A stretch of DNA of 62,684 bases, the filler included, from Aduncisulcus paluster (Eukaryota), in the NCBI GenBank assembly GCA_024181965.1. It is 5 parts of 5 records of this genome, joined end to end, with 100 filler letters (N's around TTAATTAATTAA, not from the genome) between each part and the next. Parts side by side here need not be neighbours in the genome. Positions count along the whole stretch, not along the records: positions 20,828 to 38,465 come from BQXS01010958.1; 4 more parts are not named here. One strand, given 5' to 3'. This document shows, one piece after another, positions 6,001-51,475 of the stretch. Position 1 is the stretch's first letter, and every line of letters starts with the position of its first letter. The position numbers were made by a program, and so were the translations under genes. The notes under the pieces are model-generated. The model did not search any database. It saw only the letters and a program-made list of their open reading frames with translations, and was not told the origin of the DNA.

Positions 6001-7407
6001 ACAGGTTCCTCCTGGTCCACACTCTCTTCCTTGATCATCTGATGGACAACGGGAAGTCACACAATTGGTTGAAGGATCCCATCCAGCTCTACATTCAAAT
6101 TCAATTGTTCCATCTGTCTGAAGAACACACATTTTGTTCTCAAGAGCTTTCCCGTAACATACAGAAGTTGTGTCCTTTTTACATGAGGACGTTGAAGAGT
6201 CGTAAACATATCCCAGACGACACTCAAGAGCACCAAAATTATTGCAGACGAAACCAGTTTCAATCAGAGGATCGGATACACACTCGGAAGTTATTATTGA
6301 AGATAAGGATAAGGTAGTAGGAGTATGAGACCAAATATTATAATATTCAGTTGAAAATGAATTGTCCAAATAAGCTAAGTTATCGGTAATCTGAAGAGAA
6401 GAAATGGATGGAAGGAAGAGAAGAGGAGTATAATCGGAAATATATGGCGTAATAAGCGAAATTGAATCTAGATTTGTTGCATATTCAATTCCTTTGAGAG
6501 AATATATTAGAGAAGATTCAGAAATCGTTGTGATCATGCGTAAATCTGGCAAGCTAAGGAAACATCCATCGCTACCACATAAACTATTCCGAAGACTTTC
6601 ATCTTGGATGATTTGACATCTCCCTTGATTGTCTCTCGAAGAGAACCACATACATTCAAGAGAATCCGTCCTATCGTCAAATACTTCATTATTCAAGAGA
6701 CTGGAACATTCAGGGTCAACGCATGAACACTGACTGTTGGGAATCAATTGCCAGGAAGATATATTCGTCGAGCTGTAGATGGAGGAGAAATAACTCTCGA
6801 CCTCTGATGGGGTTTCTGAGAGGATCAAATCAATATGGAGATCGACGCCATTAGATAGACAAAGCATTGAGAGATTAGATAAGCTGAAGAGAGGGGATAT
6901 ATCAGAAAAAGGATTTCCATATAGTGTTAAGATAGAGAGAGAAAAAAGAGAAAAAAGAGGAATAATGGATGTAATCAAATTATTCGATAAGTCAAGAGTA
7001 ATAAGATTGGTTAAGGTTCCAATTGGAGATATATCCTCAATAGAATTGCTGCTAAGGTCCAGAGATGTTATCGATTGTAAATATTCAATTCCAGTCAAAT
7101 CATTAATAGAAAAACCAGATAAATTGAGGGATCCACTTGTAGATGCCATGGTACTCTGAAATAAATCACAAAGCGAGTTTGTAGACAAAATCTCATTACA
7201 GAGCGCGAGGTGAAGATTTTCATCTGGAAAATACACAATTTCATCATTAAATGTAGATATTAAGGGGGAAAATGTGTTTAAAGGTCCTGTATAATCATTA
7301 GATATAACAATAGCATTCGAAAACTGTACAACGATAAAATATAATAAAACAATAAAATAAACATGATAATTAGAATATAAATGATTGCAATAATGCAAAA
7401 TGCTCAT
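1..7407 (-). CDS. Giant internalin-like leucine-rich-repeat / Cys-rich surface protein, >=2469 aa, 3' end runs off the window
   Basis: Hand translation from ATG at 7407 gives MSILHYCNHLYSNYHVYFIVLLYFIVVQFSNA (hydrophobic signal-like), then VYFPDENLHLALC...LTGIEYL. The same frame at the window edge reads DPSPLYHLTNIVEIYLTHNNIC. The ORF track shows no stop-terminated piece in this frame, consistent with one open frame. Same motifs as the 20828-30387 protein. Confidence 0.85.
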   Translation of the reverse strand, partial: MSILHYCNHLYSNYHVYFIVLLYFIVVQFSNAIVISNDYTGPLNTFSPLISTFNDEIVYFPDENLHLALCNEILSTNSLCDLFQSTMASTSGSLNLSGFSINDLTGIEYLQSITSLDLSSNSIEDISPIGTLTNLITLDLSNNLITSIIPLFSLFSLSILTLYGNPFSDISPLFSLSNLSMLCLSNGVDLHIDLILSETPSEVESYFSSIYSSTNISSWQLIPNSQCSCVDPECSSLLNNEVFDDRTDSLECMWFSSRDNQGRCQIIQDESLRNSLCGSDGCFLSLPDLRMITTISESSLIYSLKGIEYATNLDSISLITPYISDYTPLLFLPSISSLQITDNLAYLDNSFSTEYYNIWSHTPTTLSLSSIITSECVSDPLIETGFVCNNFGALECRLGYVYDSSTSSCKKDTTSVCYGKALENKMCVLQTDGTIEFECRAGWDPSTNCVTSRCPSDDQGRECGPGGTCNTNTWQCECDSLSIFSPEKKLCIYYHGNDYETYIPDIHMRAILCYIYANSTPFLCDLSVDDIKSIPNSDLSSSPFFEQGLFSIEGIQHLSNMTSLPLSGNRISNISPLKGMCGQDFSLVNLTIDENLANPNNYIIDLSPIGGINFDTLSLSALELEVYDPFPLFRSRSFNTLKMDGLNICHDSNSFAFSDWTDNFWDLTNNFCIEPQCPMDPASCANDGNSNCPTTLINNMVYNPYLWGENSIGGVECAFGTKQTDSGLCRILHDENLSDYIFGDISSITLSQLKDLRELTSITFGGSGGSAADGYFHIPDNLVTSLEGIEFFQNLEEIDISNQSISNVEPLALIPTLTSIKCSNNSITDMSPLTSLPLVYLEPAYNNLDLFSEEMLALFTDLFPDVEFSGLSIPLEQKIPAICDGIDDKIGEYKVCVGQPSDVNPSSIIECQHGYYQNGMEEISATLGVGECLLDEYNICSNCGPLKKCVKYNFSDVYPYCMCRNGKFGNQCQYEVDIPDDWMRIALCYHRYSRAGLCNISLNELQSVSNDSLSAANSHITLLDGIEHLTSLNSIDLSLNSITDIKPMQYLEGISYLILSNNGISDLSPLSNYYHLISIDISTNYVFDLSPLYKNIELEELFFSGGVTSLFGNPICYSESNTEIISFLMGIFPNLTTSSSELTSMLGSVDTSGICPSDVSIRMTQNEVLDPISLEAKCAWFSVKHGYRCNAIHDYIVRRELCRLYYDDNSIEDCFMEVPEIRLVQGNLDLSPYSSEISTLHGLELATALSGLILDGYNFNESVTSEHDYLVIRILSRSYVYNTSQISGLSLSLANCNISSISNLFDYTSHSRLVSLSLARNSLRTVHNLFNFLDENNPIYSALAFLDISENIIFGALPFGLFESLRNRFQLLDSDSLNISPQSIESYQLSIPDPVMRREICSFVRGEEFPGSLCDISQTEMMNFTSSTTFAIDSSSETLYDLEGIQYLTNITVLILSGHKITDLSPLVELSILEELNLSSNLISDISPLSSLESLSVLDLSYNYIHHIYQLGVIYGLSNLNISHNPIFDISPLFHLSFVVFEFDGIKLCFSDSLEDFEEYIDDIFFDLSDSTGYSSYSLDCDLTTSSYPSLSSNELYNPYLVDSSGNVGAIECISIALDTAGTCEIIPDTELKDAVKDQGTISEITPATLRSSSLTTLNCDGLGISSLKGIQYLTSLENLVFSNNSIKNIKPLRFLMNLSNINLSDNSDIVDIYPIQHLPNVSSLDISNTSVCMNTSIAETLREWFPDASITVSEDIDSNLNDNSYWVVQSLLQLCVFGYYSDNSSVCVYHRACELCSTSQSCTLGDNSYPTCQCDDHYGPNCEYQTNIPDPWLRIKICEVLEGSSGFCDATSTAMSNYDDPLILEESHISNLEGLSLFNSISSISLGGNHVTSLDGLSALSGQLISINVSDNVLAEISIIREFEYLENFDCSNSGSSSFSNNRINDISPLSELVNLASVNIEGNNVYDISPLAHMVWLERFSIQNNKICFSESLDEMQAYFGGSGILGQLFPAVLISDRQNSSTQQCDIASSNSEPCTGSSCPSLLKNEVYDSFYRVKRCSHVTGVDGYGDDIDGKCHVIHDESLNTYLLSTLSSYYSGIPAYSDADYVINISDLRLLYGHIKILDTFIENIEGLEFATNISALTFNVNHSIRTGDSDRVGNVRVIQLLSRKINIEADETSNLRVGYQSGLEIIAFSTCDLTDATFDMAELFPFPTRISQFGTRFNSDLTENSLIFNPDIFPDIICLDLTGTSISSLDFISNYKSQLKKIYLSSCDNIEHFDVLTEFEQLTSIALDHTQFTDIGILVRSLSANILASIDLSYNYLGIMGFSAAGANCSLTDLPSLSVLRLENVIVIQQNSDEMSLSSDHVENLLISTSITSLTLSNNNIYTLTGLNMPALQRFYCNYCLLSDPSPLYHLTNIVEIYLTHNNICIGVNEDDLSDLFVSSNVNCIDFSDNSCNCENSSMY

Positions 7408-7811
7408 TTTGCAAAAAGAATTAATCGCCGATTTCTCTAATATGACAAAAATCAGCGTAATTATCCAAAAGCGCATCCTCATCACTCTCAATGACAAATT
7501 TTCTGTCATAAAAATTGAATTTTGTTGCTTTTTGAGCATGGAATTATAAGAATATTACCGTGATATTGTTTTAGCATTTCCAAATTTTCATAATCCATTT
7601 TGATTGAACTATTAGGTGTCCTCTGTCTATAGAAACATTATTTTTGTTTCTGCACTTATTGTATTCTGTTTAATATCTCTTTTAGGGAAAGTATCATTCT
7701 CATAATCTATCAAGTTGCTATCTTCGGAATAGCGTTTTTTTTTATCACTTTTCTTCCTTATACATTCATATATACCATTATCAATTCCATTTTTGTGATT
7801 TTATATCATAA

Positions 7812-9812: not shown

Positions 9813-10630
9813 ATCATTGAGATGGAAATATTCTCGGGACTCTCTTTCCAGCATTAATAATATGTTTTTTTTTTTTTCTTTTCTAATTCCTTTTTATTAC
9901 TAATCGTTCTCATCTTTTTTGTTTTGTTTTTTTGTTTTGCCAGATTTTCTTCTTATTATTTTCTCTATTTCCATACTAACCTATTGTGGCTAATTTTATG
10001 TAATTTATATGGTTTCATATAACATTACTCTTCTGTCTGATTTAGCATATTGTGATTCTTTCCCTTTCAAATGTTTCCTTGCTGTTTCTTACCTCCAAAG
10101 GGCGAATACTATATCTGAACATTTTATATTATATTATTTTATTATTACAAGACTTCATGTGTTTATTTCACTTGCAATGTGACTAAAAAAAAAATTTACT
10201 TTATTTTGGTTTCATATCATGGCCTCGGGCTCGTAAATTATGATAGATATTCATATATCTGTCTAGATATTGCATGTAATTGATTCGGGATGGATAATTT
10301 TGTCAGTTTTTTCTTCTGTTGTGACAACAGTGTTGTTGAAGCTGGAATAAAACAAGTGTCAAATAATAGTCCTTATAATCATCGATATTCTTCATCAATA
10401 CGGTTAAATTGTGCGTTTCGATTTGAAAATTTGTGTTGAACTGCCCTTCTTGAAGAAGAGCAAAAAATTCCATGCTCGATCTTAAGGAATATGGAAATAA
10501 AATTATGATTATAATTATAATATTTCCATTATATGGGTTATAATGAAAATATTAATTATGAAAATCTTAGTTACTATGTTAAATCTTGGTGAGGAGCATT
10601 TGTTCAAGTTTTTGGCCACAAAAACTGAAA

Positions 10631-13402
10631 ATGGTTCAATGGTTCACCATTCCAGGTGGCTGTAATTGGAAAAGTTATAAAAATGAGTTAAAAATAATTC
10701 AACACTCATGTATTAATGGTATCGCAACCGTCGAGGCTGTTGTCGATTGTTTTTTGAAATTACAGGAAATTAAGAGATGTGGAGACTTTCAAAAACGTTC
10801 TTTGACATTTATTTTCTCTGGAGCTTGCGATTTAGTTTCAAAACATAATGATCTATCATCTTCTCAAGTTCTTAATGATTCTATCGGAATGATGATTAAC
10901 TGTTGTCTTTTACTTGATCATAGGGATGGAATGGCTGATAAATTTGCAAAAATTTCTTCAAATAATCCTGTTTTTATTATTTCCCGTTTAATGTGTCTCT
11001 CGCTAAATGCTCTTGCCTTTTTAAATCTTTTTGATAATTATTCATATAATATGACCTTTCTAAAGTTTCCAGTGTCTCATTCTGGCAAGTATATTCCTGA
11101 AGATGGGATCCTCTTTCAGGTTGAGAAATGTGCTTGTATGCTCCAATACTTTATCGAGGCCAAATTTTCCTTTTCTGAGCTTGAAAAGAATTGTATTGTT
11201 CTTGTTCATCGTTCAATTTCAAAGAAATTTGTTCATGATGTTCTAAATCCCGAACCAATAATGAAATCTTCCAAAGGAAAGAAAAAGGGAAAGAAAAATA
11301 GATCAGTATATAGTAGTGATGAAATGGGAGTGTTTCTCGATGATTTCCATTATAAATCATTATATCCAACGTCGTGGGATATCTCTTCTGATCACTATGA
11401 AGCTATCATGGAGCAAAAACGGAAAGCAAGAAACCGACTCAAATTCAATTTTATTCCACAGTCCGTCCATAGTCATGGGGATACCGAGGTATGTCATGGC
11501 ACAAAACCCTCAATTACAATCTTATCGACGAAATCCTCTCTCCTCTCTCAGGAATTTATCTGTTCACGGACTGTTGGGGACTTTGCAAACAAGCACATCG
11601 GAGGTGGTGTGTTCGGTCGAGGAAGTGTCCAGGAAGAGATAATGTTTCTCACATGTCCGGACTTGTGTGTGAGTAAGTATTTATGTGAAGTTCTTGATGA
11701 TGAAAGTGCCGTGTGGATCTTCGGAGCACCATTAATCTCGAAATATGAAGGGTATAGTAGGAATTTTCGTTATGCCGGAAGAGTGAAGCTTCCAATTGAA
11801 TCGTATGGAAAAAAAAGTTCAGATAAAACTGATTCAATTCATCCGTTGTGCTTGTGTTCTGTTTCAGTGCAAGATATTCCCAAGGTTAAAATGGGTCAAA
11901 AAATATCTAAAACCCCAATTTCTCGTCAGATTAACATTTTGCCTTTTTGCATAACCGTGATGGATGCACTTCATTTTGAAGATAGCGGTTCTGATCTGTT
12001 ACAGCTTTGTCCTGGTAATTTTCTAAGAGAAGTTACAAAAGCCGTTGCAGCTTTTTCTCCTCCATCACTCCAACATATTCAAATTCGGGCCAGTGAGATG
12101 GGATCGGGATCATTGAGAACAGCGAGACCGTATTCTTATTCCGAGCTGATGAACAGCATTCTTGTTCTTTCACATGATGTTTGTTCCAACAATAATCCCT
12201 TGATCATTCGGACTCAGAACGTCAAAGATCTGTATGTTGGCGACCTCGTGAAGTGTAACTTCTATGACTCCGATTTGATCAATGAATGCATTGATTCGGA
12301 TGCTGGAGGGATAATGAAATTATTCTATCGACCGATTGTGAGTGGTCGGTGGGGATGTGGGGCCTTCAATGGTGATGGTCCCGTGAAAGGATTGGTGCAA
12401 ATGTTTGCACTATCAATTGCTAACTATCTGAACAGGGAGAAAATGGAGCAACAACTCAAGCAATCAGAGTATTCTCCTTCAGAATTTTTAATACATTTAG
12501 AACTGTGCCCATACAAAAACAAATCCGATAGTAAGTCATGGAAATCAATTGTAAAACGTATTTATTGTCGTGATATGTGTAGTTGTTTTCAAATATTATC
12601 CAATTTGGATAATTTCAGACAAGATGTGAAACAAAATGCAACATTGGCTGAATATATCAAATTTTGGGATCAATTTAATGAAGAAGAAGAAGAATCCCAA
12701 CCTGATGATCCTATTTTAGAGGCTGCTATAGTTCCTACAAAAGAGATTCAATCATCTGAACTGACTCAATCTTCCTTTGCAGAATCCATTCTATTGTCGA
12801 ATTCTGGTGGTGTATCATGTGACGTGTTATCATCTGTAATACCGTGTGATTCATCCTCCATTGTTCCCAGATCTGATCCAATACACGCCTCTTTAATACC
12901 AGAATATATCGATATATTCTCTGAAACTGTTTCTCAGAATGATGTTATTCCTCTAAATGCACCGATTGAGGTCAAAGATATGGAGGAGAGAAAAGAAGAA
13001 GAAGAGGAGGAGGGAAAAGAAGAAGAAAGAGAAGAAAAAGAGGAAGAAGAGGAGGAGGAAAAAGAAGAAGAAAGAGAAGAAAAAGAGGAAGAAGAGGAGG
13101 AGGAAAAAGAAGAAGAGGAAGAAGAGGAAGAAGGAGAAGAGGATGAAAAGAATGAAGAATCTTCGTCTGAATCTATTCAAACCCACATTTCCTCATTATC
13201 TATTACAATGGAAAGACAAATTGATTGCAAAGTTCCGAATCAACGTAAAATCTTTAGATTCTTTCGGAGAGTATCGTCTTCATTAATTTTATATAAAAAT
13301 CCTTTGCGTGAATATTATAAAAAACTTGAATTTCATTCTCTTTTTGACAAAACTCCCCAATATTCAAATCCATTGCAGAAAATTAGACAAAAGGCAAAAT
13401 AG
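10631..13402 (+). CDS. PARG: Poly(ADP-ribose) glycohydrolase with acidic C-terminal tail
   Basis: DFANKHIGGGVFGRGSVQEEIMF (GGG-x6-QEE catalytic signature), YEGYSRNF, MDALHF, SGRWGCGAFNGD. First ATG is at 10631 (the track starts at a TTG, 10586). Confidence 0.92.
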   Translation: MVQWFTIPGGCNWKSYKNELKIIQHSCINGIATVEAVVDCFLKLQEIKRCGDFQKRSLTFIFSGACDLVSKHNDLSSSQVLNDSIGMMINCCLLLDHRDGMADKFAKISSNNPVFIISRLMCLSLNALAFLNLFDNYSYNMTFLKFPVSHSGKYIPEDGILFQVEKCACMLQYFIEAKFSFSELEKNCIVLVHRSISKKFVHDVLNPEPIMKSSKGKKKGKKNRSVYSSDEMGVFLDDFHYKSLYPTSWDISSDHYEAIMEQKRKARNRLKFNFIPQSVHSHGDTEVCHGTKPSITILSTKSSLLSQEFICSRTVGDFANKHIGGGVFGRGSVQEEIMFLTCPDLCVSKYLCEVLDDESAVWIFGAPLISKYEGYSRNFRYAGRVKLPIESYGKKSSDKTDSIHPLCLCSVSVQDIPKVKMGQKISKTPISRQINILPFCITVMDALHFEDSGSDLLQLCPGNFLREVTKAVAAFSPPSLQHIQIRASEMGSGSLRTARPYSYSELMNSILVLSHDVCSNNNPLIIRTQNVKDLYVGDLVKCNFYDSDLINECIDSDAGGIMKLFYRPIVSGRWGCGAFNGDGPVKGLVQMFALSIANYLNREKMEQQLKQSEYSPSEFLIHLELCPYKNKSDSKSWKSIVKRIYCRDMCSCFQILSNLDNFRQDVKQNATLAEYIKFWDQFNEEEEESQPDDPILEAAIVPTKEIQSSELTQSSFAESILLSNSGGVSCDVLSSVIPCDSSSIVPRSDPIHASLIPEYIDIFSETVSQNDVIPLNAPIEVKDMEERKEEEEEEGKEEEREEKEEEEEEEKEEEREEKEEEEEEEKEEEEEEEEGEEDEKNEESSSESIQTHISSLSITMERQIDCKVPNQRKIFRFFRRVSSSLILYKNPLREYYKKLEFHSLFDKTPQYSNPLQKIRQKAK

Positions 13403-16981: not shown

Positions 16982-18814
16982 ATGAGTAAGACATCACGTA
17001 CAGCTATCGTTAATCCTGATCGCTGCAAGCCTGAGATATGTAGTCAGGAATGTCGTAGGGTGTGTCCAGTTGTTAAGATGGGGAAAAGATGTATCGTCGT
17101 CACAAAGAAGATTGCCATGCTTTCTGAAACTCTTTGTATTGGTTGTGGTATATGTCCAGGTAAATGTCCTTTTAAAGCAATCACAATTATCAATCTTCCA
17201 AGTGATTTGGATGAAAAACTCATTTACAGATATGGAAGAAATGCTTTTAAACTTCATCGGTTACCTACCCCTAGACCCGGTCAAATTCTTGGTTTGCTTG
17301 GTCAGAATGGTATTGGTAAAAGTACTGCTCTGAGAATTATGGCAGGAAAATTGGTTCCTAATTTTGGTAATTTCAAGGAAGAATCTGATTGGGAAGATGT
17401 CTGTGAATATTTCCGTGGTTCAGAATTGCAAGCATACTTTAAGAAAGTGGTGGAACAATCAATTGTTGTTCGTACAAAGCCTCAATACGTTGATGTTATT
17501 CCTAAGAAGATTCCTGGAAGTGTCGGAAACGTTTTAATGAAACTCCACTCAAAACCCCTTCCTATTGTCAAAGATATTATAGCGAAATTGGATCTTGTTC
17601 ATCTTCTCAAGCGTAAAATCAAACTTTTGTCCGGTGGTGAGCTTCAGAGATTCGCCTGTGCTTTGAGCATGGTTCAAACGGGAACAATGTACATGTTTGA
17701 TGAGCCTTCTTCATATTTAGATGTTAAACAGAGATTGACCGTTGCTAGAATGATTCGTGACATGATTGTCGGTGATCACGAGGTTTATTCCATCGTTGTT
17801 GAACATGATCTTGCTATTCTTGATTATTTGAGTGATTTTGTATGTGTTTTGTATGGTACCCCCGGTGTATATGGTGTGATCACCTTCCCATTCAACGTTA
17901 GAGATGGAATCAATGTATTTTTGGCTGGTTTTATCCAAACTGAGAATATGAGGTTCAGGGATTATGCTATTTCATTCAAAATGACAACAGATACCGATGA
18001 AGAAGAGGGTGAAGCCAGTGATGTCATCCGAGAGCAAGAATACCCCGATATGCGTATTGATAGAGACGAATTCCACCTCACTGTCGAGGCTGGAAAGTTC
18101 AGAGACTCTGAAATTGTTGTTCTTATCGGAGAAAACGGTATGGGTAAGACCACTCTGATCCGTGCTTTGGCTGGTATGAAGGGACTCGATCCCAAAGAGC
18201 TTGACAGTGATGATTTGGTCGATATGCCTTCCCTGTCTGTCTCCATGAAGCCTCAGAAACTCTCTCCTTCCTTTGAGGGTACAGTTGAGCAACTTCTCAA
18301 GAAGAGAATTAGGCCAGCTCTTTCCCATGCTCAATTCCAGACAGATGTGTTCAAACCTATGAACATGGATGTCCTCATGGACAGAACTGTCACTGAGCTG
18401 AGTGGAGGTGAGCTCCAACGTGTCGCTATCGTTATGGCTCTTGGAAAGCCTGCTGATGTCTATCTTCTCGATGAGCCCAGTGCTTACCTTGATGCCGAAC
18501 AGCGTATGATCACCGCAAAGGTTATCAAGAGGTTTATTTTACATTCCAAGAAGACTGCGTTCGTTGTTGAGCATGATTTCTTGATGTCCACCTACCTTGC
18601 TGACCGTGTGATCATCTACTCCGGTGAACCTGGTGTGAAATGTACTGCTCACGCTCCCCAGGGTCTTGTTGCTGGAATGAACACTTTCTTGAAGAGTCTT
18701 GATGTCACTTTCAGGCGTGATCCAACCAACTTTAGACCTAGGATTAACAAATTCCTCTCTCAAAAGGATAAGGAACAGAAGGCCACCGGTGATTTCTTCT
18801 TCGAGGAGAAGTAA
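16982..18814 (+). CDS. ABCE1: ABCE1/RLI1 Fe-S ribosome-recycling ATPase
   Basis: N-terminal Fe-S cysteines (CKPEICSQECRRVCP; CIGCGICPGKCPF), two ABC domains (GQNGIGKS, LSGGELQR, DEPSSYLD; GENGMGKT, LSGGELQR, DEPSAYLD), C-terminal TFRRDPTNFRPRINK. Confidence 0.98.
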   Translation: MSKTSRTAIVNPDRCKPEICSQECRRVCPVVKMGKRCIVVTKKIAMLSETLCIGCGICPGKCPFKAITIINLPSDLDEKLIYRYGRNAFKLHRLPTPRPGQILGLLGQNGIGKSTALRIMAGKLVPNFGNFKEESDWEDVCEYFRGSELQAYFKKVVEQSIVVRTKPQYVDVIPKKIPGSVGNVLMKLHSKPLPIVKDIIAKLDLVHLLKRKIKLLSGGELQRFACALSMVQTGTMYMFDEPSSYLDVKQRLTVARMIRDMIVGDHEVYSIVVEHDLAILDYLSDFVCVLYGTPGVYGVITFPFNVRDGINVFLAGFIQTENMRFRDYAISFKMTTDTDEEEGEASDVIREQEYPDMRIDRDEFHLTVEAGKFRDSEIVVLIGENGMGKTTLIRALAGMKGLDPKELDSDDLVDMPSLSVSMKPQKLSPSFEGTVEQLLKKRIRPALSHAQFQTDVFKPMNMDVLMDRTVTELSGGELQRVAIVMALGKPADVYLLDEPSAYLDAEQRMITAKVIKRFILHSKKTAFVVEHDFLMSTYLADRVIIYSGEPGVKCTAHAPQGLVAGMNTFLKSLDVTFRRDPTNFRPRINKFLSQKDKEQKATGDFFFEEK

Positions 18815-19060: not shown

Positions 19061-20727
19061 ATGGATTTTATTCCTTCATGTATGTTGTGTTTACTTATCT
19101 GTTTATTCTTTTCTCCTTGTATAAATATGTTTTAAAACGAATCTAATTTGTCATGAATATTGTTGTCGCTATTCACTCTGTTTTAACATAGTTTCAAAAG
19201 ATATTCATCCAGAATTTGCTTGCAGATGGAATTTAACTCCCCATGAAATCGAAGCCTTGACTGAATATTGTATTGATGTCGATAAGCGTCTTGTTGATAC
19301 AATCGTCAGAATTCCTGACTGCCACCGCACATACGAAAATACAGTTCAACCTCTGGTTCAAGATGTTTTGTATGAATCAATTGAATCTAGTTTCACCATC
19401 GTTTCTTACGTATCCAAGTTCAAATCTGTAAGAGAAGCATCTTACAAAGCCAGAGATAAACTTAGTCAGTATGGAGTTGGTCGATACATGCGTAAAGATC
19501 TTTATTTGGCCCTCAAGGCTGTTCATATTAATGAAGTCGAGAAAGCCAAAATCCATCCTGAAGAGGTGAGAATTCTCGATAAAATGGTAAGAAACAGGGA
19601 ACAACGGGGTCTTATGCTACCTATTGATGAGCGTGAGAAATTGACCAAACTCAAGCAAAAGATGGCCTCTCTCAAAACTGAGTTTAATCAAGCTGTGCAA
19701 TCAGATGATACCCAATTCCTTTTCACCTCTGATGACCTCAAAGGATTGCCCGAGTCCTTCTTTAAAGGTCTTGAGAAGAAGAAAGATGATGATGGTATTG
19801 AGAAATTCGTTGTGACCCTGAAATATCCTCACCTTGTCCCAATATTACAGAAATGTTCTGTCAGAAAAACAAGACAACTCATGGAAAAGGCAAAGAACAA
19901 TATTGGAAATCCCAAGAATTTGGACCGTCTGTTGGAGATTGTGAAGCTTCGTCATGAAGTTGCCCAATTATTGGGTTACAAGAGTCATGCTCATCTCGTT
20001 CAGATTGAGAATATGGCTAAGAATCCTGAGAAGGTTCAAGATTTCTTGAATGATATCTTCTCTAAATTCAAGAAACAGGCTGACCTTGAGAGAGAACGTG
20101 CCTTCTCCATCGGAAGGGAAGAATGTGGGGAGTCTGTTGCCGTCGATGAGGGTGAACAAGAGATGTTCAACGCCTGTGATATCTCATATTTGCTCCAAAA
20201 GATCGAAGAGAAGGAGTACCAATTCGATAAGGAACTTGTACGTCCCTATTTTGAGCTCTCTTCCACTTTTAAGAGTATCTTTGCTATTTTTGAAGAAGTG
20301 CTCGGTGTTGAGATCATTGAAGTCGAAAAGGAAGTAGATGAACCAGAATTGAAGGAAGAAAAAGAGGAAGGAGCAAAGGAAGAGGAAGGAGCAAAGGAAG
20401 AGGAAGGAGCGAAAGAGGAGGAAGGAGAAGAGAAAAAGGAAGAGAAGAGTCCCGTTGATAAAGATGCTTTGATTGCTGAAGGATGTTTGATTGCTCAACG
20501 GATCCGTAAGACATCCATGCTCACTTCCGATGGGAAAGTTCGTGTTTGGCATGCCGATGTTCGTCCATTTGCTGTATATACTGCTGAGGACCCTGAAAAC
20601 CCTCTCCCTAAAGAGCACCGTTTCCTCGGTTACCTTGTGTGTGACCTTCATCCAAGGACTGGAAAGTATTCCCACGCCTGTATGCTTCCAATCGTTCAAC
20701 CCTGTCGTAGACGATTCTGGGACTCCT
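19061..20727 (+). CDS. Peptidase M3A (thimet oligopeptidase/neurolysin-like), one 112-nt intron at 19080-19191, truncated at contig end
   Basis: Exon 1 MDFIPS, intron GTATGT...CATAG, then RWNLTPHEIEAL; VTLKYPH, AQLLGYKSHA, MAKNPEKV, RPYFEL, VWHADVR, DLHPRTGKYSHA are M3A motifs. HEXXH lies beyond the break. An upstream in-frame ATG exists at 19010. Confidence 0.88.
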
Positions 20728-20827
20728 NNNNNNNNNNNNNNNNNNNNNNNNNNNNNNNNNNNNNNNNNNNNTTAATTAATTAANNNNNNNNNNNNNNNNN
20801 NNNNNNNNNNNNNNNNNNNNNNNNNNN
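20728..20827. other. Artificial contig linker
   Basis: N run, TTAATTAATTAA (stops in all six frames), N run; 100 nt. Confidence 0.97.
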
Positions 20828-23800
20828 TATAAAGGAGAGATGTCAACAAGGGAATTGTGTGCAACATTCAACTCATCGAGAGCAAGATGCACAATGGATA
20901 AGAGATCGGAATCTACAAGACCCAGGGAGGCAAGGCCTAAGGAGGAAATGGAAGAGAAACTCACAAGAATGGATGGGTCAAACAATGAAGTCGTTTCTAC
21001 AATATCATCATACAACGACGCACCATTCATTATCAGCTCCGTCAACGAAACATTGGTAGAGTCGGCAGCAACAAGAAGAGGACTAACATCGATAATGGAT
21101 GTTTCGGCGAGATTGAGAGAGCTCAAGGAGGTGTACGTATCAGCACACTCGGAAGTGTCGGGAAGAGCAGACACAGAAGTGACAGAAGAGAGGGTCAGAG
21201 TGGAGAGTGAGTGAAGGGAGCAGATGAACGATAGATCAGAAAAGCCTTCAATGGCATTCCCATCAGCATCCACAGGAGCACCATACATGTTATGGGCAAG
21301 GGAAAGGGACTCAAGACCATGCAGAGAGCCCAATGGATCAGCACTCACAAAGTTGTGATATGGCAACGAAATGGATGTAAGAGAGCGGATATGTTCAATT
21401 CCATCAAGCAGGGAGAATCTATCAGAGTTGGAGAGAGCAAAACCATCGTTGGACAAAGTGGAGGAGGAAATGGTTCTCAATGAAGCCACGCTGAAAAGGG
21501 AAGGCGTGGAATCTGTTCTGTGCGTGTAATCAGGATTGTCTTCAGAATCCACAAACATATCAGCAACATATGCATGTAAGTTCTCATCAACAATCACAGG
21601 ATAACATGAAGAGGTGGATTGAGTTAATTCATCATCATATCTACATTCATATCCATACTCACAACCACCAGGACATCCATATGTTTCACCATCTGTGTTG
21701 AGTGGAGCTAGACACTCGAAGATATCGATAGATGTGTATGATGCGATACTATGGCTGGAACACACATAATGCCATGAACCAGATCCAGGTACAGTCTCAC
21801 TGCACACGACATTGTCAGTGATCGGGGTATCGGTGTATCCAATTGCAGTGCTATCAGAGGAACATTCGCAGGTCTGTGTCGTAGAAACCGGCGATCTTGT
21901 GATATTTGAGAACTTTGAAGCAAGGTCGCTTGTCGATTCGGATCCAAAACATATCTTATTATTATCAATTGAAAATCTAGAGGAAAAAGAAATGTTATAT
22001 AGCGGAGAGAGATCAGATATTGAACAACCGACAATTGAAAAAGATCGAAAGTAAGTTATCCCAGCTTTTGCCAGAGGAACTAAAGACGTGATATCTAAAT
22101 TATAAGCCAGAGAGACGGTTAAAAGTGTTGATGCGCTATTAGAAAGATCAGGGATATTCAATAGATTACAATTTATGAGGATAAGCGATATTAAACTTGT
22201 CATGCTCGAGATGACATCATTGAAGTTGTCATAAATCGGATAATTAGAAAAATAGAAATATGCGATGGTAGATCGCTGATTTTCTGACAATGAATCAATA
22301 GATGTTATTGTAGAATCTTCGCCTCCGAAATATAAATGTTCAAGGGAAGGTAACCGATCATTCCCAACATTTGTATTAAAACCGGCTTGAGAAATTGGTG
22401 TCCCCTGAATATATAAGTTTTTGATATTGGACGGTAGAACATTCTGATCTGAAGGAAGAGATATAAGCGAATATGAGAAAGATAATGTCTCAAGAGCAAC
22501 CAAAGCCGTGAAATCGGGCAAATCAAACGCAATAATTCCTGAAAGATTGGGTAAAGAAATGGAATTAAGATTGGAAAGAGTTGACAGGGGTATGAGATCA
22601 CTGGTTTTAGAGAAATCAGAATAACCTAAATAGATTGATTGCAAATTTTCAATATGTTCAAGCCCGGATAGATTACTGACAATATAATTACTTGAATAAC
22701 TCATTGTAATAGCTTCAAACGTCTTCAAGGAAGCCACGCTGAAAAGTGATGGAGTAGAATTTGTTCGATGAGTATAATCAGCATTTTCATCAGAATCTAC
22801 AAACATATTGGCAACATAATCATGCAAGTTATCATCGACGATCACTTGTTGACACTTTCCAGTAGAATATGTAACATCACTAATCACTTCATCGCCAAGA
22901 TATCTACACTCATATCCATACTCACACCCGCCAGAACAGTTCGTGGTGGATGAATCTGGTTGGATACATGTAAAGTCCTCAGCAGATGTGTATGACGTGT
23001 ATGAATCACTGGCACACACAACATACCATGCACCAGACCCAGGAAGAGTCTCAGCACACACCTTGTTATCAGACAGACTAGGAATGGGATCCGAGTCTGA
23101 ACATCCGCAGGTTTGATTGGAAACATCTATGAACAGGTCAGGAGAAGAACTAAATATATCCTCAAAAATAGTCTGGACATCATCTCCACAGATATAATTA
23201 TTGGTCAAGTAAATATAACTCCAAGTGTTACTGGACAAAGCAAACAATGGGGAAGGATCAGAAATGGCACATTCCCTCGCATAAAAATAGGTTAAATTTG
23301 TAAGACCAGAAGAGACAATAGGAGTAAGGGATGCAAGAAGAGGATTTAAGTTGATATTGAGAATGGTCAAAGTTTTTGCTTGAATTGAGAGGTCTGGAAT
23401 TGTTTGTAAATTACAATCGGCCAATGAGAGGGCTTCTAGATTTGACATTTCAGCAAGAATGTCAGGAAAATTCTCAAATGTATCGATTGGAGAACTTCTC
23501 CAGATAAAAGTTTTCATATTTTGCTTTTGACTTGCTGTCAATGAATCAATTGATGTGAGTAAATTGTTGTCTCCTCCAATAGCAAGTTGTTCAATATCAG
23601 GAAGATATCCATTACCGACATTCATGGCAAACCCCTCGTTATTCACATTTGAAAAGGAACAATAAAAGCCTTTGAGTGATGTGGGGAGGATATATTCCTC
23701 AGAAGGAAGAATTATTGAGGTTTTCTGAATTGCCAAAACATCCAAAGATGTTAATGAAGTGAGGGTGGGCAAATAAGAAAGACTTGAATTCCTACCTAAA

Positions 23801-26800
23801 TATAACTCCACTAAATTCGTGAGAGTTGATAATAAATCAAGATGAATATCATCCGAATCAGCAGAAAAAACACCGAAGAAAGCAATCGATTTAATCCCAC
23901 CAAGGTGCTCAATACCTGATAAATCATCGATAGGAAGAGATGGATCATTATATTGAATTTGAGGATAATATTCATAACCCATGGGCACAGAAACCAGAGT
24001 TTTTAGAGAAGCAACACTGAAAAGGGAAGGAGTGTCGGATGTTCGATGGATATAGTTTGCAGTTCCATCATAATCAGTAAATAAATCAGCTACATAATCA
24101 TGCAAGTTCTCATCAACAATCACTTGCTGACACTCCCCGGTTGAATAACTTATGGAAACATCTCTAACAAGACCAAGATATCTACACTCGTATCCATACC
24201 CACACCCTCCAGAACAGTTCGTGGTACTCGAAGAGGTTGGTTGAGTGCATGTAAAGTCCTCAGCAGATGTGTATGTAGTGTATGAATCACTGGCACACAC
24301 AGCATACCATGTGTTAGATACCCCAGGATTGGTCTCAGCACAGACCTTGTTATCAGACAGACTAGGAAGAGAATCACAATAACAGACTTGAAGATCAACA
24401 CGTATTACAATATACGGGGAAACAGGCAGAAATATACTTTCAAGAACAAGCAGAACCTCAGAATCACCACCACAGATGTAGTTACTGGACAAATCAAGGC
24501 TGTTCCAAGAAGTATTGCTGGCTAAAGCATACAATGGGGAAGGATCAGAGATATTATTGTTGTTCAGAGATAGTTCAGTCAGATTGGGCATGCTAGCAAC
24601 AAGATGGAACAACAGAGAAATCGAAGTGTTGTTTGCACTGAAAGAGGTGAGAGAAGAAGGGAAAAGACCAGATTCAGTGATATCATATTCTGTGTTATCA
24701 TTAAGAGAGAGCGTTGAAAGATTCAAAAATAATGTGAAATCGGCATTGGCAGCAATATCACATTCGTCAGCATATATTTCAACTATAGTCTCTGGAATAG
24801 AAGAAAGATCAAAGCTCGTGCATCCACTGATATCAATAACATTCAACGAGGAAGGGAATGAACTTGAATCGGGACTAGATGCTGTATTTCTCTTCATAGA
24901 TAAAAAACCCAGATCCTCAAGCGCAGAGAAATCAGGGGATTCAATCAAGTCAACATTATCAAGTGTGAGGGATGTAATATAGGATGGAAGACAATCCAAT
25001 CCGTGGGAATTATCCACAGACATATTTGATCCACTGATATCAAGCGATGACAATGATGTCAAATCACTGAGTTCAGATAAATCCCAGATAAGATTGTCAG
25101 TATAGTCAGAACGTGAGAGATCCAGTCTAGTCAATCCTGTTGCGTATGCCAATCCTCTAATGTCAGTGATATCGGTTTCATCGGCGAGATTAAGAACAGA
25201 TATCGTTGACAGTTCTGACATAGTGATATGCCCATCAGAACTACATGTCACACCACTAAGCCCACAGATATGTGACTCAAGATCAGAATCATTGAATGTG
25301 ACATATTGGCAAGCAGATCCCATATAATCAGTCGATTCACACCCACATGAATGACTACCAATATCACATGATCCATGTGACCCACATTCCAAGGAGTCAT
25401 AATATGGGCACTCATAATCACATTCATCTCCATACCATCCTTCAATACACAATGTTTCAGTTCCATCAATGCTACAACACTCAACATTCGCATTATCCAT
25501 GGATGATTCAACACACGTGGGGAATGTGTCAGGAGAAGTGTAGTTATCCGATTCATCAAGATATGACACACATGAACTTGAGCCATCTCCATTGTCTACT
25601 TTGTAACTATACAGATTACACTCCACACTCCATTGTTCGTGGGAAGTAGTGGTTGTTGTGATCAATCCAGTCCCATTATCTTCCTCCACAGTTTCCGTCC
25701 AGTCCCACACTTTACGACAGATCGTGTTGGAGGAAAGAGACGCGGCAGAAGAAGTATCTGAACAATGAATAACGGGATCACCAGCAGTCTCAGAGGATGA
25801 ACAGAAACCACAGGAAGAAGTGTCCTGTGCGGAAGATGTGATGGAAGGAGGATAAGTTGTTGCATTCATTAAGGGAAAGAAAGAATACAAAGCTGCCAGT
25901 CCCTCATCATCAAGGTCACAAATGGCATTATTACTGATATCAAGGGTGGACAATGTTGTATTGAGTTGATACAATGATGATATGTCTGTAATTAAGTTAT
26001 TTGTCATGGATAAGGTTGATAAAGAGGACTGTAGCGGAATAATATATTCCAAATAACTATCAGAAATGCTCATATTGTTCATGCTTAGCCATTCAAGATT
26101 GGTAAAGAATTGTAAATCACTCAATACACAGGAATCCATCCCATCTATATACAAATGTGTAAGAGTCGAGTTGTAAGATCCCTGCGCAGATGTCCATTCA
26201 AGCACTAGTGGGTCGAGAGACGTTATTCCTGAATTGATTATCGATAAAGACGTTAATAATGTCCCGGGAGATATACATGTTAAACTGGTTAATGAGGGAA
26301 TATTATCTAAAATAAGGGTACTAATATTATTAATCGTGACACCATCAGCTTGTATATTATAATTACAGAAAAACTCACAGAAATCAATAGCGGTACATCC
26401 AGATACATCAAGGGAAATCAAAGATAAAGGATATGTGCCACATGTAGTAAGTGAATAGGATGAATTATCATGCAAAGTGAGAGAAACAAGGGATGAGAAA
26501 TCAGCGAATGAGGCATTTGATTCCACATTCATATCATTGAGAATGAGTTCTGTGAGAGAGGCGTGTGGAATGTTGGCGATCTCGGTATCTCCAATTGTCG
26601 TTAAAGCAGAGTTCCTTCCAGTTGCACTGAAATATGTAAGATTGGTAGCAACTGACAGACCTTTGAAAGAATCAACATTTGTAACCGTTAGAGATGTTAG
26701 AGTGAGCATTTCGGATAATAGAATGTCATTGCAATCGCTCGGATGGGAAAGAACTGAGCAGATGGCAGAACGGAGGTTGTTATCAGGAATATACACATAA

Positions 26801-29800
26801 TTACAGTACTCGCCAATGAATAGGGAATCAAGACAGGCACATATAACTGCAGTGGAACCCTCTTCAAGCAGAGCGATTTGCATATTCTCTTTCCGTTCAC
26901 ACACACGGCACCGAAGTGAATTATTTGAGGTATATGACGAACTATCGATGCACTTATCTGTATCGGCATCATACACATAATTGGCCTCACATGCCTTAAT
27001 GCATGAATCTGAGCTACGATCGAAGTAATACCCATTCCAACACTCGGTTTGATAATTTCCATCGACCTTCAATCTACAAGTTTCATATGACAAGAATGAA
27101 ACACCTTCTGAACAAGGACAATCATTTTGTTCAGAAATATCAAAATTTGTCGTGGGAAAAGTATTTAGTAATACCGAGGAAATATTTTCTGCAACATCAC
27201 AAATAAAATTGTTGGATAGATCAAGGGAATCAATGGAACCGTTGGAAAACAATTCATTTGTCACTAAAATTGACACATCAGTAATATAATTATACGAGAG
27301 GTCAAGAACATAAAAATTGAAGGAAGTGACTGATGAATCGTCCCCCACAACAGGTGCAAGCTCAAACACATCCTCAATTTTATAAATTCCACACCATTGC
27401 ATCGTTAAAGAAGATAGACCAGCCGTTATTACGGAGTTATTAATCCGTTTCGTGAGAATTTTCAAGACGGTTTTATCATACTCAGGTTTTGTTGATAAAT
27501 TGTAATTATACAAGTTTAAAGTGGATAAATTACTGAAATATTCAAGACCTTGGAGAGAAGATACTTCTTCGGAATCAATTGTCATTGTACACCCTGTGGT
27601 ACAAGTGATGTTCCTCACATCTGCAACACTTATCACATTGGATGACTGAAGGTCGAATTCTTCACTCATGAGATTTCTTATTATGGGATCGTGGAAAGTA
27701 TAGCATACCAATTGACCCGATACATCCTCAGCAAGGGCAATTGATGAACACGTAATGGCATTCGTATTAGCATCATAGATTTCATTATTTACAATACTTG
27801 GACAATTACTAAAGGCTAAACAAGTTGGTGTTTGAGACAAAGGGCATTCAGTATATAACAAATAGTCATCAGATAAATAGTTGCCCGATATATTAGGGAA
27901 GATACTCTCTATATAGGTTCCAAAGACAGAATCTTCTTCAGAACGACACAAAGGTATGGAATTAAGAGAAAGATTGATTATTTCAATATTTCGATAGAGA
28001 ATGGAAATGTCATTAATTGGACTATCAATGAGGGCAGCAGAAGTCAAACGAGATGCTGAATATAATGACGATATATCAGAGAAAGGGACGGAGCCTATAT
28101 CAATTAAATATATCTGTGGAAGTGATTCAAGGGCATAAATCCCAGATAGCATGGAAGTATCGGAAATGTAGACTTTTCCAACGTCAAGAACATTCTCAAC
28201 ACCCTCAAGTGTAGTCAGTTCACTTCCGTAGATTTGAATATAGTCACCAATATCTGCTATGTCAAATTCAGAGAGATCACAGCCAGCTACAAAGTTACAA
28301 GAAGTACACAAGATATCCCTCATATGTTCATCTGGAATATACACTTGATACAATTGATCACAATCATCTCCATACCAGGCTGCACGACAACCACATGTGA
28401 TAGATGAAGCTTCTTCCTCAAGAACAGGCATCATAGTGGAATGGCCTTCACAGACTTGGACACGAATAGCATCATCAACAGAGGTACTACTCACAGATAC
28501 ACATGAATACGGGGTTGTGGACATATCAAGTTCAGACCCACTCGCACATACCTCAAGACACTCTCCACTGGCTTTGTCAAGATAGTACCCATTCCAGCAC
28601 TCGACAGCCCAACGATCGGGATACACTTCTCGACATACTTGGTGGTCAGAAGAAGACACGGATGCAGAACAATGGCATGTTTGGTCAGAATATGTCAAGG
28701 TTGATAGGGTTGGGAATTCGGTTTGCAATTGACTCACCATTCCTTCAATGTCACAGATATTATTATCACTGATGTTAAGAGTTGTGAGAACAGCATCAGT
28801 ATCATCAGGGAACATGGACGATGTAATGAGAACGGAAACATCAGAGATGGAGTTGTTTGAGAGATTAAGTGAAGTGAGTTTGAAGGGCTGTGTGGTCAAG
28901 TCACCAGCAGCAATTGGAGTCAGATCCAAAATATCACTGAGAGCATTCAATCCGCACCCACTCGCAGATAAAGATGTTAGACCAGAATCAATGGGTGTTC
29001 TATCTACACTCGCATATGTCACAGCTTTTGCCAAAGTCTTTATGACCAACTTATCAGTCACTGCAGAACCATAACCATCATCACCACTCAGATCGTACCC
29101 ATCGATACTCAAAGAGGACAAGAAAGTGGCATACTCAAGTCCTTTCAAAGAAGTGATATCATTCACTGAACTTAAAGACAAAGATGAAACAATTACAGAG
29201 AGATTAAGTGAGGAACAAGTGAAATTGGAACTTCTCAATGTGGCCACACTGATCACTCCGTTATCTTGAATGTTACTCACACATCCTCCCAGACTAGCAA
29301 GTGATAAGTAAGCACGAATGTAATCATCATGGATGGTATAACACTGACCATCGGAACCTTCCTTCGCAATGAACGCACACTGCTTGGCATTTACACCGTT
29401 GACACTGTTGAACACTTCATTCTGAATGATTGAGGGGCACTCATCAATATTTGAGGAACAATAATACTCTCCAGGGCTATTTAAAGGACAATTATTGGCA
29501 TAATAAATTGGATTCTCTGCGAACCGTGGGTGTATAGGGAAGACGGCCTGAATAAAAGCCTCAAATGAATCGTAATCCTCACTTCGACAGAGAGAAAGAT
29601 AAGATTCGGACGAAGGATCGCTGGATATGAATTCAAAGGTTCCAACGTTTTGATAAAGCGAAGAGATATCATAGATATTGTCGTTGCCATACAATGTGAT
29701 TGTGGAGAATCGTGATAGATAGGATAGATCGTCAATATTTGCAAGAGAATCCAGAGTGTCGGTGAGTGATATCGAATTCAGCTGGGTGAGGGAAGAAATT

Positions 29801-30387
29801 GGAGAAAATGATGCCAAGGTACTATTTGTAAATATTAGTTTATCGACATTGTACAAATATTGAATTCCTTCAAGGTCAGAAAACCCATTTAATTCATCAG
29901 AAAAGGTTCCAGTAATACTGGCAAGCTCAAATTCAGAGACATCGCAGAGAGTGGAATCATAGCCAGTTGAATTGCAAAGAGACAGTCGTAATTCGTCATC
30001 TGGAATGTAAACTTGATAAGTTGATGAGGTTTTGACCCCGGGGAAAACCTCAAAGTCAGAATAAGGTGAGTTCACGGAGGCTCCATAGACAGCTAAGGGT
30101 CGGAGCATTATAACAAATAAAAGTCCAAAATGGATAGTTTGCATCCGAAATTGCAAAAGTAGAGAGAGAAAAAACAGAAGGATTAAAGCTAATACAGGAA
30201 ATGGAACAATATTGAAGAGGATGGGAAGAATAGGGAAACGGATACAAAGAACAAAGCATAAAATCCCGAGAATGTCCTTCAAAATTATTGAATTATTTGT
30301 AATACTGTTTAAAAATTCATTTTTAATACAGTGATGGATTGAAGAAGTAGAGATACCAGTATTTGTTTGGTAAGCCGAAGATTTCAT
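20828..30387 (-). CDS. Giant internalin-like LRR / EGF-like Cys-rich surface protein, >3180 aa, truncated at contig end
   Basis: N-terminal hydrophobic segments; repeated blocks of [VI]YIPD-x-L cap, LxxLxLxxNxIxDxSPL repeats, NNxIC C-cap, and EGF-like modules (CGSHGSCDIGSHSCGC...GSAC; GWYGDEC). Confidence 0.9.
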
Positions 30388-30584
30388 TTTTCAATCGCTT
30401 AATTTGCCAAATAAAAGATTATTGACACTCACAAAACTTCAATTACAGGAGAAAGACGACTCCTTTGAAATCTAGCTGATTATTGTTAATTGTTGAGCAA
30501 AACTCGATATTCTTTTGATTATATTGAGTATAAAATGGTTAATTTATTTTAAGAAAATAATAACTTCAGAAGGCTAATTACGAG

Positions 30585-38465: not shown

Positions 38466-38565
38466 NNNNNNNNNNNNNNNNNNNNNNNNNNNNNNNNNNN
38501 NNNNNNNNNTTAATTAATTAANNNNNNNNNNNNNNNNNNNNNNNNNNNNNNNNNNNNNNNNNNNN
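38466..38565. other. Artificial contig linker
   Basis: Same N/TTAATTAATTAA linker. Confidence 0.97.
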
Positions 38566-51375: not shown

Positions 51376-51475
51376 NNNNNNNNNNNNNNNNNNNNNNNNN
51401 NNNNNNNNNNNNNNNNNNNTTAATTAATTAANNNNNNNNNNNNNNNNNNNNNNNNNNNNNNNNNNNNNNNNNNNN
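51376..51475. other. Artificial contig linker
   Basis: Same N/TTAATTAATTAA linker. Confidence 0.97.

Follow-up and report, generated by a model that had tools for sequence, protein, structure and literature searches.

Folded cysteine-rich joints alternate with divergent LRR solenoids in a giant Aduncisulcus paluster gene and may bound sequence exchange within its family

We analyzed a 62,684-nucleotide stretch of Aduncisulcus paluster DNA (the window), which consists of five contigs joined end to end. One of them carries a giant LRR gene, in which a single minus-strand ORF (20828/20831-30387) houses three Cys-rich cassettes and the LRR blocks between them (Table 1). The apparent stop of this ORF, at 20776, sits within the artificial contig linker, indicating that the gene is truncated at its 3' end. 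When the whole giant protein was searched against Pfam with hmmscan (E<=0.01), the matches were LRR_4 (89.2 bits; cutoff 27), LRR_EndoS (28.4 bits; cutoff 27.9) and LRR_8, with no others. Hydrophobic leader segments lie at the N terminus (aa 33-83), and no further hydrophobic stretch follows them in the readable protein. We infer that the giant is a secreted LRR protein, for which a surface location and a function are predicted. A sequencing run (X2, an RNA run by guess) covers the giant gene and has a contig end at 30475, both of which amount to a weak hint at most.

Table 1. Features of the giant LRR gene and its surroundings, in window coordinates
Feature	Position	Strand	Remarks
Giant LRR gene	20828..30387	-	readable protein 3185 aa; 3' end cut by contig end
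Artificial contig linker N44-TTAATTAATTAA-N44	20728..20827	.	non-biological
LRR block 1, type F	24424..25290	-	85-97% identity with P0042/P0046, as far as about aa 1975
Cassette c1	23971..24423	-	aa 1989-2139, 9 Cys
Low-synonymous-divergence tract, c1 side	24163..24402 (approximate)	-	common to c2 at about 22897-23136
LRR block 2, type C	23149..23970	-	87-93% identical to P0002, P0004, P0019, P0020 blocks
Cassette c2	22693..23148	-	aa 2414-2565, 9 Cys
c2 Cys core	about 22852-23115	-	part of cassette c2
c2 internalin-like N-cap	about 22720-22851	-	part of cassette c2
LRR block 3, unique	21904..22692	-	best paralog identity 44-71%
Cassette c3	21445..21903	-	aa 2829-2981, 9 Cys
LRR block 4, type A, terminal	20831..21444	-	at least 9 paralogs have it at 92-99% identity

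The initial annotation had placed three copies of a Cys-rich motif in this gene, similar to one another in DNA and separated by strongly differing LRRs. Its three ranges sit inside the bounds of c1, c2, and c3, which measure ~150 aa each and recur once per ~420 aa of the giant. The similarity in DNA was borne out by a repeat search, which recovered three-copy families spaced 1248-1284 nt apart with 68-72% identity over 174 nt, and c1 and c2 are 92-94% identical across 53-74 nt. A 23-mer that the annotation had cited has exactly two minus-strand occurrences (22967-22989 and 24248-24270), a count that was reached in 0 of 100 shuffled controls. Tandem Repeats Finder gave nothing, its maximum period being 500 compared with a unit of ~1270 nt here. 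Chunked BLAST within the giant gave protein identities of 68-69% for c1 and c2, 52-55% for c2 and c3, and 47-52% for c1 and c3, whereas the inter-cassette LRR blocks share only 37-41%, in agreement with the strong LRR difference first noted. The same disparity appears in nucleotides: for units 1 and 2, identity is 0.77 in the cassette and falls to 0.51 in the LRR downstream, and for units 2 and 3 the corresponding values are 0.68 and 0.38.

Each module of ~420 aa comprises an internalin-like LRR solenoid of ~270 aa and a cassette of ~150 aa, the latter built from a short variable linker, an ~85-aa beta-hairpin core with nine cysteines, and a helical N-cap belonging to the next solenoid. Five AF2 models were made of c2 flanked by 60 aa at each end; the best reached a pLDDT of 83.7 and a pTM of 0.82, and it was the only confident one (pLDDT 50.8-65.5 for the remaining four). 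In this model, a helical N-terminal cap packs on the first repeats as it does in internalins, and the segment that follows the LRRs forms the Cys-rich beta-hairpin core, of which a model made of the core alone had low confidence. As modeled, the cassette is a folded inter-domain joint, with a disulfide-rich core and an internalin-like N-cap, rather than the spacer proposed initially. In the N-cap, where amino acid identity is 67-79%, pN is only 0.09-0.16 at a saturated pS of 0.58-0.70. This low pN at saturated pS shows that purifying selection acts on the cassettes as a folded capping or joint domain.

The Cys core matched nothing in Pfam or the PDB, a Foldseek search of the cassette model against the PDB returned nothing at E<=0.001, and the ESM Atlas gave no usable match. 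The TNFR1 cysteine-rich domain was considered for the cassette and rejected as not credible (Foldseek probability <=0.33, rmsd 4-14). Likeness to the Listeria internalins InlC2, InlK, InlC, InlH, and InlB is at the level of the fold only, with a sequence identity of 15-24%; those proteins carry a single LRR domain and an Ig-like inter-repeat domain, and they have neither a Cys-rich core nor tandem solenoids. Slit-type ectodomains contain tandem LRR domains, each with Cys-rich N- and C-caps, and the giant resembles them in alternating LRR solenoids with disulfide-rich capping segments. Unlike them, it belongs to a one-protist family, its Cys core has no structural match, and hmmscan at E<=0.01 found no LRRNT or LRRCT cap profile in it, so that we did not assign it to the capped class of the Slit, VLR, and TLR type.

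Of 80 family proteins, 79 were matched by a cassette HMM, for a total of 136 cassettes in 79 gene fragments. The spacing between cassettes is 400-443 aa in 35 of 57 cases, and the consensus of the 95 near-complete cassettes fits the motif that had been read from the giant alone. Paralog matches were labeled A. paluster in 14 of 16 cases in one search and in 47 of 47 in another. A phmmer search of c2 against 1.84 billion representatives returned 44 proteins, 27 of them already named A. paluster; 10 of the other 17 were looked up, and all 10 proved to be A. paluster. Judged by sequence similarity, the family was found only in A. paluster within the searches made. Literature searches on Aduncisulcus and its genome brought up no description of this LRR-cassette family, nor does the genome announcement mention it.

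Among the LRR blocks of the giant, the unique block 3 lies within a single unitig of single-copy depth (21849-22856), and many contigs, that of the giant included, terminate within the type A block. Within block types, variation was compared between x-positions and all other columns in an LRR register set by eye. Type C is variable at 30/50 x-positions versus 23/236 other columns (p=1e-13), and type B at 37/50 versus 80/236 (p=2e-7). Variation in types B and C is thus clustered on positions predicted from the repeat register to line the concave face.

The divergence of the cassettes is uneven, even at synonymous sites. In sliding windows, pS in the Cys core of c1 and c2 is 0.20-0.35, compared with 0.58-0.70 in the N-cap and about 0.66-0.72 in the LRRs, which runs against the uniform divergence that the initial annotation had named as its refutation. 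Codon use points the same way: c1 and c2 use the same codon at 45/55 of the conserved residues of the core. The fraction is lower in the N-cap part (26/44, p=0.015) and elsewhere (72/144, p=4.5e-5), and saturation would give 0.44. Neither c2/c3 (p=0.37) nor c1/c3 (p=0.09) shows a significant same-codon excess in the core.

Comparison with paralogs revealed block mosaics, as had been anticipated, in the draft assembly. Identity between the giant and P0002 is about 30% over aa 1700-2000 and then about 93% over aa 2030-2500; it returns to about 30% over aa 2540-2830 and reaches 83-97% over aa 2930-3139. All three switches fall inside c1, c2, and c3, and identity to P0046/P0042 switches at about aa 1975. 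Across the family, a sliding-window scan for drops in identity from >=85% to <=55% mapped 587 transitions, of which 427 fall at cassette coordinates 0-149, a span of about one third of the module. The resulting module strings are F-C-.-A for the giant,.-.-C-D-A for P0002, E-C for P0020, and F-L for P0046. Blocks P0004_L2 and P0020_L1 are 99.3% identical, and their upstream blocks are unrelated. An adjacent block was also >=70% identical in just 4 of 45 comparisons, which are non-independent, the conserved terminal block A taking part in roughly two thirds of them. Block mosaics, switches in short conserved tracts, and a preserved domain order, as in var-like families, are therefore all present at the level of a short-read assembly. 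From these alignments, the joints look as if they were exchange points, with related genes holding the same blocks in other combinations.

Conservation of the cassettes could also have arisen with no exchange at all, from an ancient tandem triplication after which they stayed alike since a disulfide-rich cap tolerates few changes, the LRR blocks diverging by drift or adaptation. The cassettes are folded and under purifying selection, so structure alone accounts for much of their conservation; the modeled fold, the conserved N-cap with its saturated pS, and the core codon use of c2/c3 and c1/c3, which does not differ significantly from that of the N-cap, all fit this account. It does not explain why synonymous differences in the c1/c2 core are far fewer than in equally conserved flanks. 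Nor can divergence alone give abrupt switches from 93% to 30% between paralogs, or near-identical blocks such as P0004_L2 and P0020_L1 with unrelated upstream neighbors, and we consider this explanation unlikely.

Misassembly bears on the mosaics and on the synonymous pattern alike. The paralogs and the window contig come from a MaSuRCA draft of Illumina 150-bp paired-end reads with ~500-bp inserts, an N50 of 4.6 kb, and 25,863 contigs. A short-read draft of this kind may contain chimeric joins, some of them at the cassettes. If the true genes were collinear and the assembler had misjoined unique LRR blocks via near-identical cores and blended cassettes, both apparent mosaics and apparent homogenization, with lowered synonymous divergence, would be mimicked. 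Family proteins are nearly all "partial"; Logan contigs fragment exactly at the cassettes and do not bridge the linkage of neighboring blocks; the c2 core has a summed depth about 140-fold above that of single-copy unitigs (up to about 140-170x overall); and the transitions coincide with the most conserved motifs, the very places at which an assembler would be expected to switch. Against this, the heavy fragmentation suggests that the assembler mostly broke at repeats and did not bridge them, and the high-copy part of c2 (22857-23109) is at most about 250 nt, below the ~500-bp inserts. Unitigs of single-copy depth cover LRR block 3 and, in a stretch (24167-24551) that takes in the c1 switch point, part of c1, and a hybrid cassette with a c2-like core and a c1-like N-cap is an unbranched unitig in both runs. 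Shared block types are moreover diverged copies (87-96%), not duplicated contigs, and we regard artefact as a rather unlikely source of the whole pattern. Programmed or somatic assembly, after the models of lamprey VLRs and of mitotic recombination in var genes, would have cells rebuild expressed LRR genes from donor modules with cassettes as joining signals. The many partial module-bearing fragments, the combinatorial block orders, and the homology tracts at block borders are compatible with it. Yet the germline contig itself holds an in-frame multi-module ORF, the locus gives no evidence of read-level heterogeneity beyond some single-base variants and small-side joints, both few in number (Logan contigs cannot show rare variants), the fragments are partial by contig ends and not demonstrably donor cassettes, and no dedicated machinery was identified. 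Such assembly is highly improbable, and we found no indication that the diversification system which the initial annotation had suggested is a dedicated or programmed one.

The pattern is probably best explained by a modular LRR family whose cassettes are kept by selection together with cassette-bounded exchange. The three cassettes would join the domains of an extracellular LRR protein of modular build and be held alike by two forces, purifying selection and sequence exchange. The latter could be gene conversion or non-allelic homologous recombination, acting between modules and between paralogs as an ordinary evolutionary process with no dedicated machine, and it would start and end in the cassettes, as the synonymous-site and mosaic patterns suggest. 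Whole LRR solenoids would thereby be swapped between genes with domain boundaries intact, and among blocks of one type substitutions would also gather on the predicted ligand-binding face. The earlier idea of conserved anchors that shuffle LRR blocks thus survives in part. The low pS of the c1/c2 core, the switches inside cassettes, and the rarely kept neighbors favor it; the exact runs common to the giant's own cassettes are a mere 17-28 nt, and chimeric joins could feign some of the shuffling. That cassette-anchored exchange of solenoids is ongoing and mitotic, so that a clonal culture would continuously yield new combinations of hypervariable blocks in a var-like, architecture-preserving manner, seems to us quite improbable; were it true, a bacterivore that lives freely and faces no host immunity would be diversifying a recognition repertoire.

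Our verdict is that the giant's family is probably a recombining modular surface-protein family, a kind already known, and its combination of swaps with concave-face variation would have precedents in plant resistance genes, lamprey VLRs, and parasite antigen families. Plant NLR/RLP LRR resistance genes have hypervariable solvent-exposed xxLxLxx residues and undergo unequal crossing-over. The family shares with them the variation at concave-face x-positions and the apparent exchange of blocks among paralogs, but it has no NB-ARC or kinase partner and its exchange borders are dedicated Cys-rich joints. In metamonads, the BspA-like proteins of Trichomonas are an expanded LRR-based surface family; the giant was not placed in the BspA-like class (Trichomonas, Entamoeba), as Pfam LRR_5 is absent from its matches. 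The Giardia VSP/CRMP proteins are likewise an expanded metamonad surface family, in their case Cys-rich. By the criteria in PMC11437800 (>10% Cys, >5 CXC/CXXC motifs, and a short-tailed TM), the giant falls outside that class, with 3.7% Cys, 3 CxxC, and 8 CxC motifs in a protein whose C terminus is missing.

The account of Plasmodium falciparum var/PfEMP1 in PMC4270465 describes a multigene surface family with crossovers in short identity regions, whose recombinants are in frame and keep their domain architecture, domains recombining within the same class. There, recombination was directly observed in clone trees, whereas here it is deduced from a draft assembly. Var domains are DBL/CIDR as opposed to LRR and Cys cassette, and unlike P. 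falciparum, A. paluster is free-living and under no immune pressure. In lamprey variable lymphocyte receptors (PMC11160967), combinatorial LRR cassettes give recognition diversity, and the LRRs are flanked by Cys-rich caps as in the giant. A VLR gene is incomplete in the germline and is completed somatically with single-repeat cassettes, whereas the units of the A. paluster family are whole ~270-aa solenoids in germline ORFs.

In this bacterivorous flagellate, the family would likely serve as a germline repertoire for recognition and adhesion, its proteins being secreted or displayed at the surface. Should the mosaics prove real, a relative of Giardia that lives freely would possess a large germline set of extracellular LRR proteins with two diversifying routes, solenoid swaps at disulfide-rich joints and concave-face substitutions. 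Recognition of prey or of the environment, and not evasion of immunity, would then be indicated as the driver, and a new Cys-rich inter-LRR domain would be defined. Separately, the LRR-cassette family partly explains the poor assembly of the A. paluster genome.

About three units of about 420 residues form the C-terminal third of the giant LRR protein in a chunked self-BLAST, with its LRR blocks (LRR1-LRR4) and Cys-rich cassettes (c1-c3) arranged as LRR1-c1-LRR2-c2-LRR3-c3-LRR4. Cysteine makes up about 6% of each cassette versus 1.1-1.5% of the LRR blocks. At the protein level, the cassettes are 68-69% (c1/c2), 52-55% (c2/c3), and 47-52% (c1/c3) identical, whereas the LRR blocks share 37-41%, which bears out the initial annotation in its view that conserved cassettes alternate with divergent LRRs. 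The similarity between cassette copies that it had reported for the DNA was also recovered, including its exact 23-mer. In the N-terminal half, other EGF-like Cys-rich linkers share 73-95% identity with paralogs and the adjoining LRRs only 30-45%; conserved joints and variable blocks therefore alternate along the whole gene.

Coordinates of features in the window (strand in parentheses)
Feature	Window (nt)	Giant (aa)	Remark
Artificial linkers N44-TTAATTAATTAA-N44	20728-20827, 38466-38565, 51376-51475, 56715-56814		contig joins
Giant LRR gene	20828-30387 (-)	1-3185	ATG at 30387
EGF-like linkers	28200-28950; 25470-25950	~481-720; ~1481-1640	Cys-rich
c1	23971-24423 (-)	1989-2139	9 Cys
c2	22693-23148 (-)	2414-2565	9 Cys
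c3	21445-21903 (-)	2829-2981	9 Cys
Terminal block A	20831-21444	2982-3185	
Second giant LRR ORF	1-7539 (-)		2513 aa, open at window edge
PARG-like protein	10586-13402		
ABCE1/RLI	16982-18814		
M3 peptidase	19257-20726		truncated by contig end
Large ankyrin-repeat protein	45786-51374		
Retroelement pol ORF	51826-54927 (+)		Ty3/gypsy type

The giant is a single ORF on the second of the five contigs that make up the window. Because it reaches into the linker, its listed stop at 20776 is artefactual and the gene is 3'-truncated; other ORF ends at linkers (e.g. stops 20783 and 51431) are likewise artefacts. Its Pfam matches are LRR families only, namely LRR_4 (89.2 bits), LRR_EndoS, and LRR_8. We rejected a BspA-like reading, as LRR_5 had no match in the giant, and a VSP/CRMP reading, as only 3.7% of its residues are Cys. 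Two features fit an extracellular protein that is either secreted or anchored by its N-terminus, as we infer for the giant: strongly hydrophobic segments occur only at residues 33-83, and there are 46 N-x-S/T sequons. In X2, one of two coded sequencing runs, the contig stops at 30475, 88 nt upstream of the ATG, where the DNA-run contig goes on, and depth climbs 5' to 3' along the gene (11, 16, and 31.5; region 28835-30475). Such coverage hints only weakly at a transcript, X2 being an RNA run only at a guess.

An AlphaFold2 prediction was run on c2 with about 60 residues on either side (best model pLDDT 83.7, pTM 0.82; remaining four models 50.8-65.5). In the best model, the last part of an LRR solenoid gives way to a loop and then to a Cys-bearing set of beta-hairpins; next come a helix (VIVDxNLHxYVA), SLFSVASL, and the opening repeats of the following solenoid. 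On this order of parts, the cassette is a predicted folded joint that caps one solenoid and the next. The repeats and the N-cap have an internalin-like fold. The architecture also resembles that of Slit, a multi-LRR ectodomain with Cys-rich caps, although the giant lacks LRRNT/LRRCT profile matches.

Relatives were assigned to Aduncisulcus paluster in 14 of 16 matches among long proteins and in all 47 among shorter proteins. A phmmer search with c2 against 1.84 billion representatives returned 44 proteins at E ≤ 0.001, 27 already named A. paluster; all 10 examined of the other 17 also belonged there. The family is undescribed in the A. paluster genome announcement and in the literature searched. 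A cassette HMM found 136 copies in 79 of 80 family proteins, spaced by 400-443 residues in 35 of 57 intervals. Median pairwise identity among 95 near-complete cassettes was 48% (Cys core 53%, N-cap 47%); for LRR blocks (n = 117), only 1986 of 6786 pairs could be aligned at all, with a median of 33%. The second giant LRR ORF, without a cassette HMM match, is a distant relative, 24-27% identical to the giant over an N-terminal-type module with EGF-like Cys linkers.

A sliding best-hit scan against paralogs revealed that the close relatives differ by part of the giant. LRR1 matches P0042/P0046 (85-97%), and the segment between the c1 and c2 cores, both cores and LRR2 included, matches P0002 (88-94%). 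No close relative exists for LRR3 (44-71%), and c3 to LRR4 matches many paralogs (94-99%). Along one diagonal, identity of P0002 changes from about 30% to about 93%, back to about 30%, and then to 83-97%, with switches near residues 2020, 2500-2540, and 2930, every one within a cassette; that of P0046/P0042 switches near residue 1975. Clustering at ≥70% identity gave 15 block types and 66 singletons ("."), in the orders F-C-.-A (giant),.-.-C-D-A (P0002), E-C (P0020), F-L (P0046), E-.-.-B-. (P0005), and -B-A (P0027, P0028, and P0032). Where blocks ≥70% identical had neighbours on the same side, the neighbour was also ≥70% identical in 4 of 45 pairs, comparisons that are non-independent and often include terminal block A. 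Transitions, defined as drops from ≥85% to ≤55% identity, numbered 587 among those that could be mapped, and 427 of them fell in the part of the module formed by the cassette, about a third of its length (181 of 257 once collapsed by position); another 127 were unmappable. Block L2 of P0004 and block L1 of P0020 are 99.3% identical with no detectable similarity between their upstream blocks, a contrast that points either to an exchange that took place very recently, to mosaicism between alleles, or to an assembly fault.

Purifying selection and exchange within the giant were separated by codon-level comparison. The N-cap part, which combines low pN (0.09-0.16) with a pS near LRR values (0.58-0.70), is conserved by purifying selection. 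In the c1/c2 Cys core, synonymous differences are few (sliding-window pS 0.20-0.35), and residues conserved in units 1 and 2 use the same codon at 45 of 55 positions. The proportion is lower in the N-cap part (26 of 44, p = 0.015) and over the remainder (72 of 144, p = 4.5e-5), against a saturation expectation of 0.44. This excess suggests that the two cores share a more recent common sequence than their flanks, as in a conversion-like tract; the effect was not significant for c2/c3 or c1/c3, and exact identity runs inside the giant reach 17-28 nt at most. That structure alone accounts for the pattern is unlikely, and we regard real exchange among modules and paralogs as probable. The initial annotation had proposed that the cassettes, as conserved spacers, could anchor recombination that shuffles LRR blocks. 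As an evolutionary process at the joints, this idea receives partial support from the core codons and the paralog switches; the term spacer does not suit predicted folded joint domains.

The finding of mosaic exchange depends on short-read assembly and needs long-read validation. MaSuRCA built the draft genome from Illumina reads alone (150-bp pairs, ~500-bp inserts, N50 4.6 kb, 25,863 contigs), and chimeric joins within near-identical cassette cores would yield the same mosaics and breakpoint map. Logan contigs from both runs break up at cassettes, and summed depth, which is not copy number, is ~186,000 over the c2 core versus ~1,250-1,300 on single-copy unitigs (e.g. 21849-22856); it is also high at the N-terminal-half EGF-like linkers. 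However, the high-copy part of c2 spans at most about 250 nt, below insert length, and single-copy-depth unitigs cover 24167-24551, including the c1 switch. A hybrid cassette with a c2-like core and c1-like N-cap (24133 joined to 22900, 23 other letters between) is a single unitig in one contig per run (depth 1422 in X1, 533 in X2) and represents a cassette of another paralog. The shared block types are, moreover, diverged copies rather than duplicate contigs. We thus hold an assembly artefact to be unlikely. Programmed assembly is highly improbable; nothing in the giant indicates somatic assembly of the lamprey VLR type (PMC11160967). Exchange among paralogs would liken the family in evolutionary behaviour to plant LRR resistance genes. 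The same holds for var genes, whose crossovers occur in short identity tracts and keep domain architecture (PMC4270465).

Variation was also mapped onto the LxxLxLxxN repeat, with the register set by eye and counts made on protein columns. Type C blocks (five copies, 87-99% identical) vary at 30 of 50 x positions versus 23 of the 236 columns outside them (p = 1e-13), and type B blocks (six copies) at 37 of 50 versus 80 of 236 (p = 2e-7), which would be the classic pattern of ligand-binding LRR faces. The terminal type A (nine copies) had no such enrichment (5 of 31 versus 28 of 164). At least nine paralogs carry block A at 92-99% identity, and many contigs, the giant's own included, end inside it. 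Other contigs of the window carry ordinary eukaryotic genes, and the retroelement ORF encodes zinc knuckle, RT, RNase H, and integrase zinc-binding domains.
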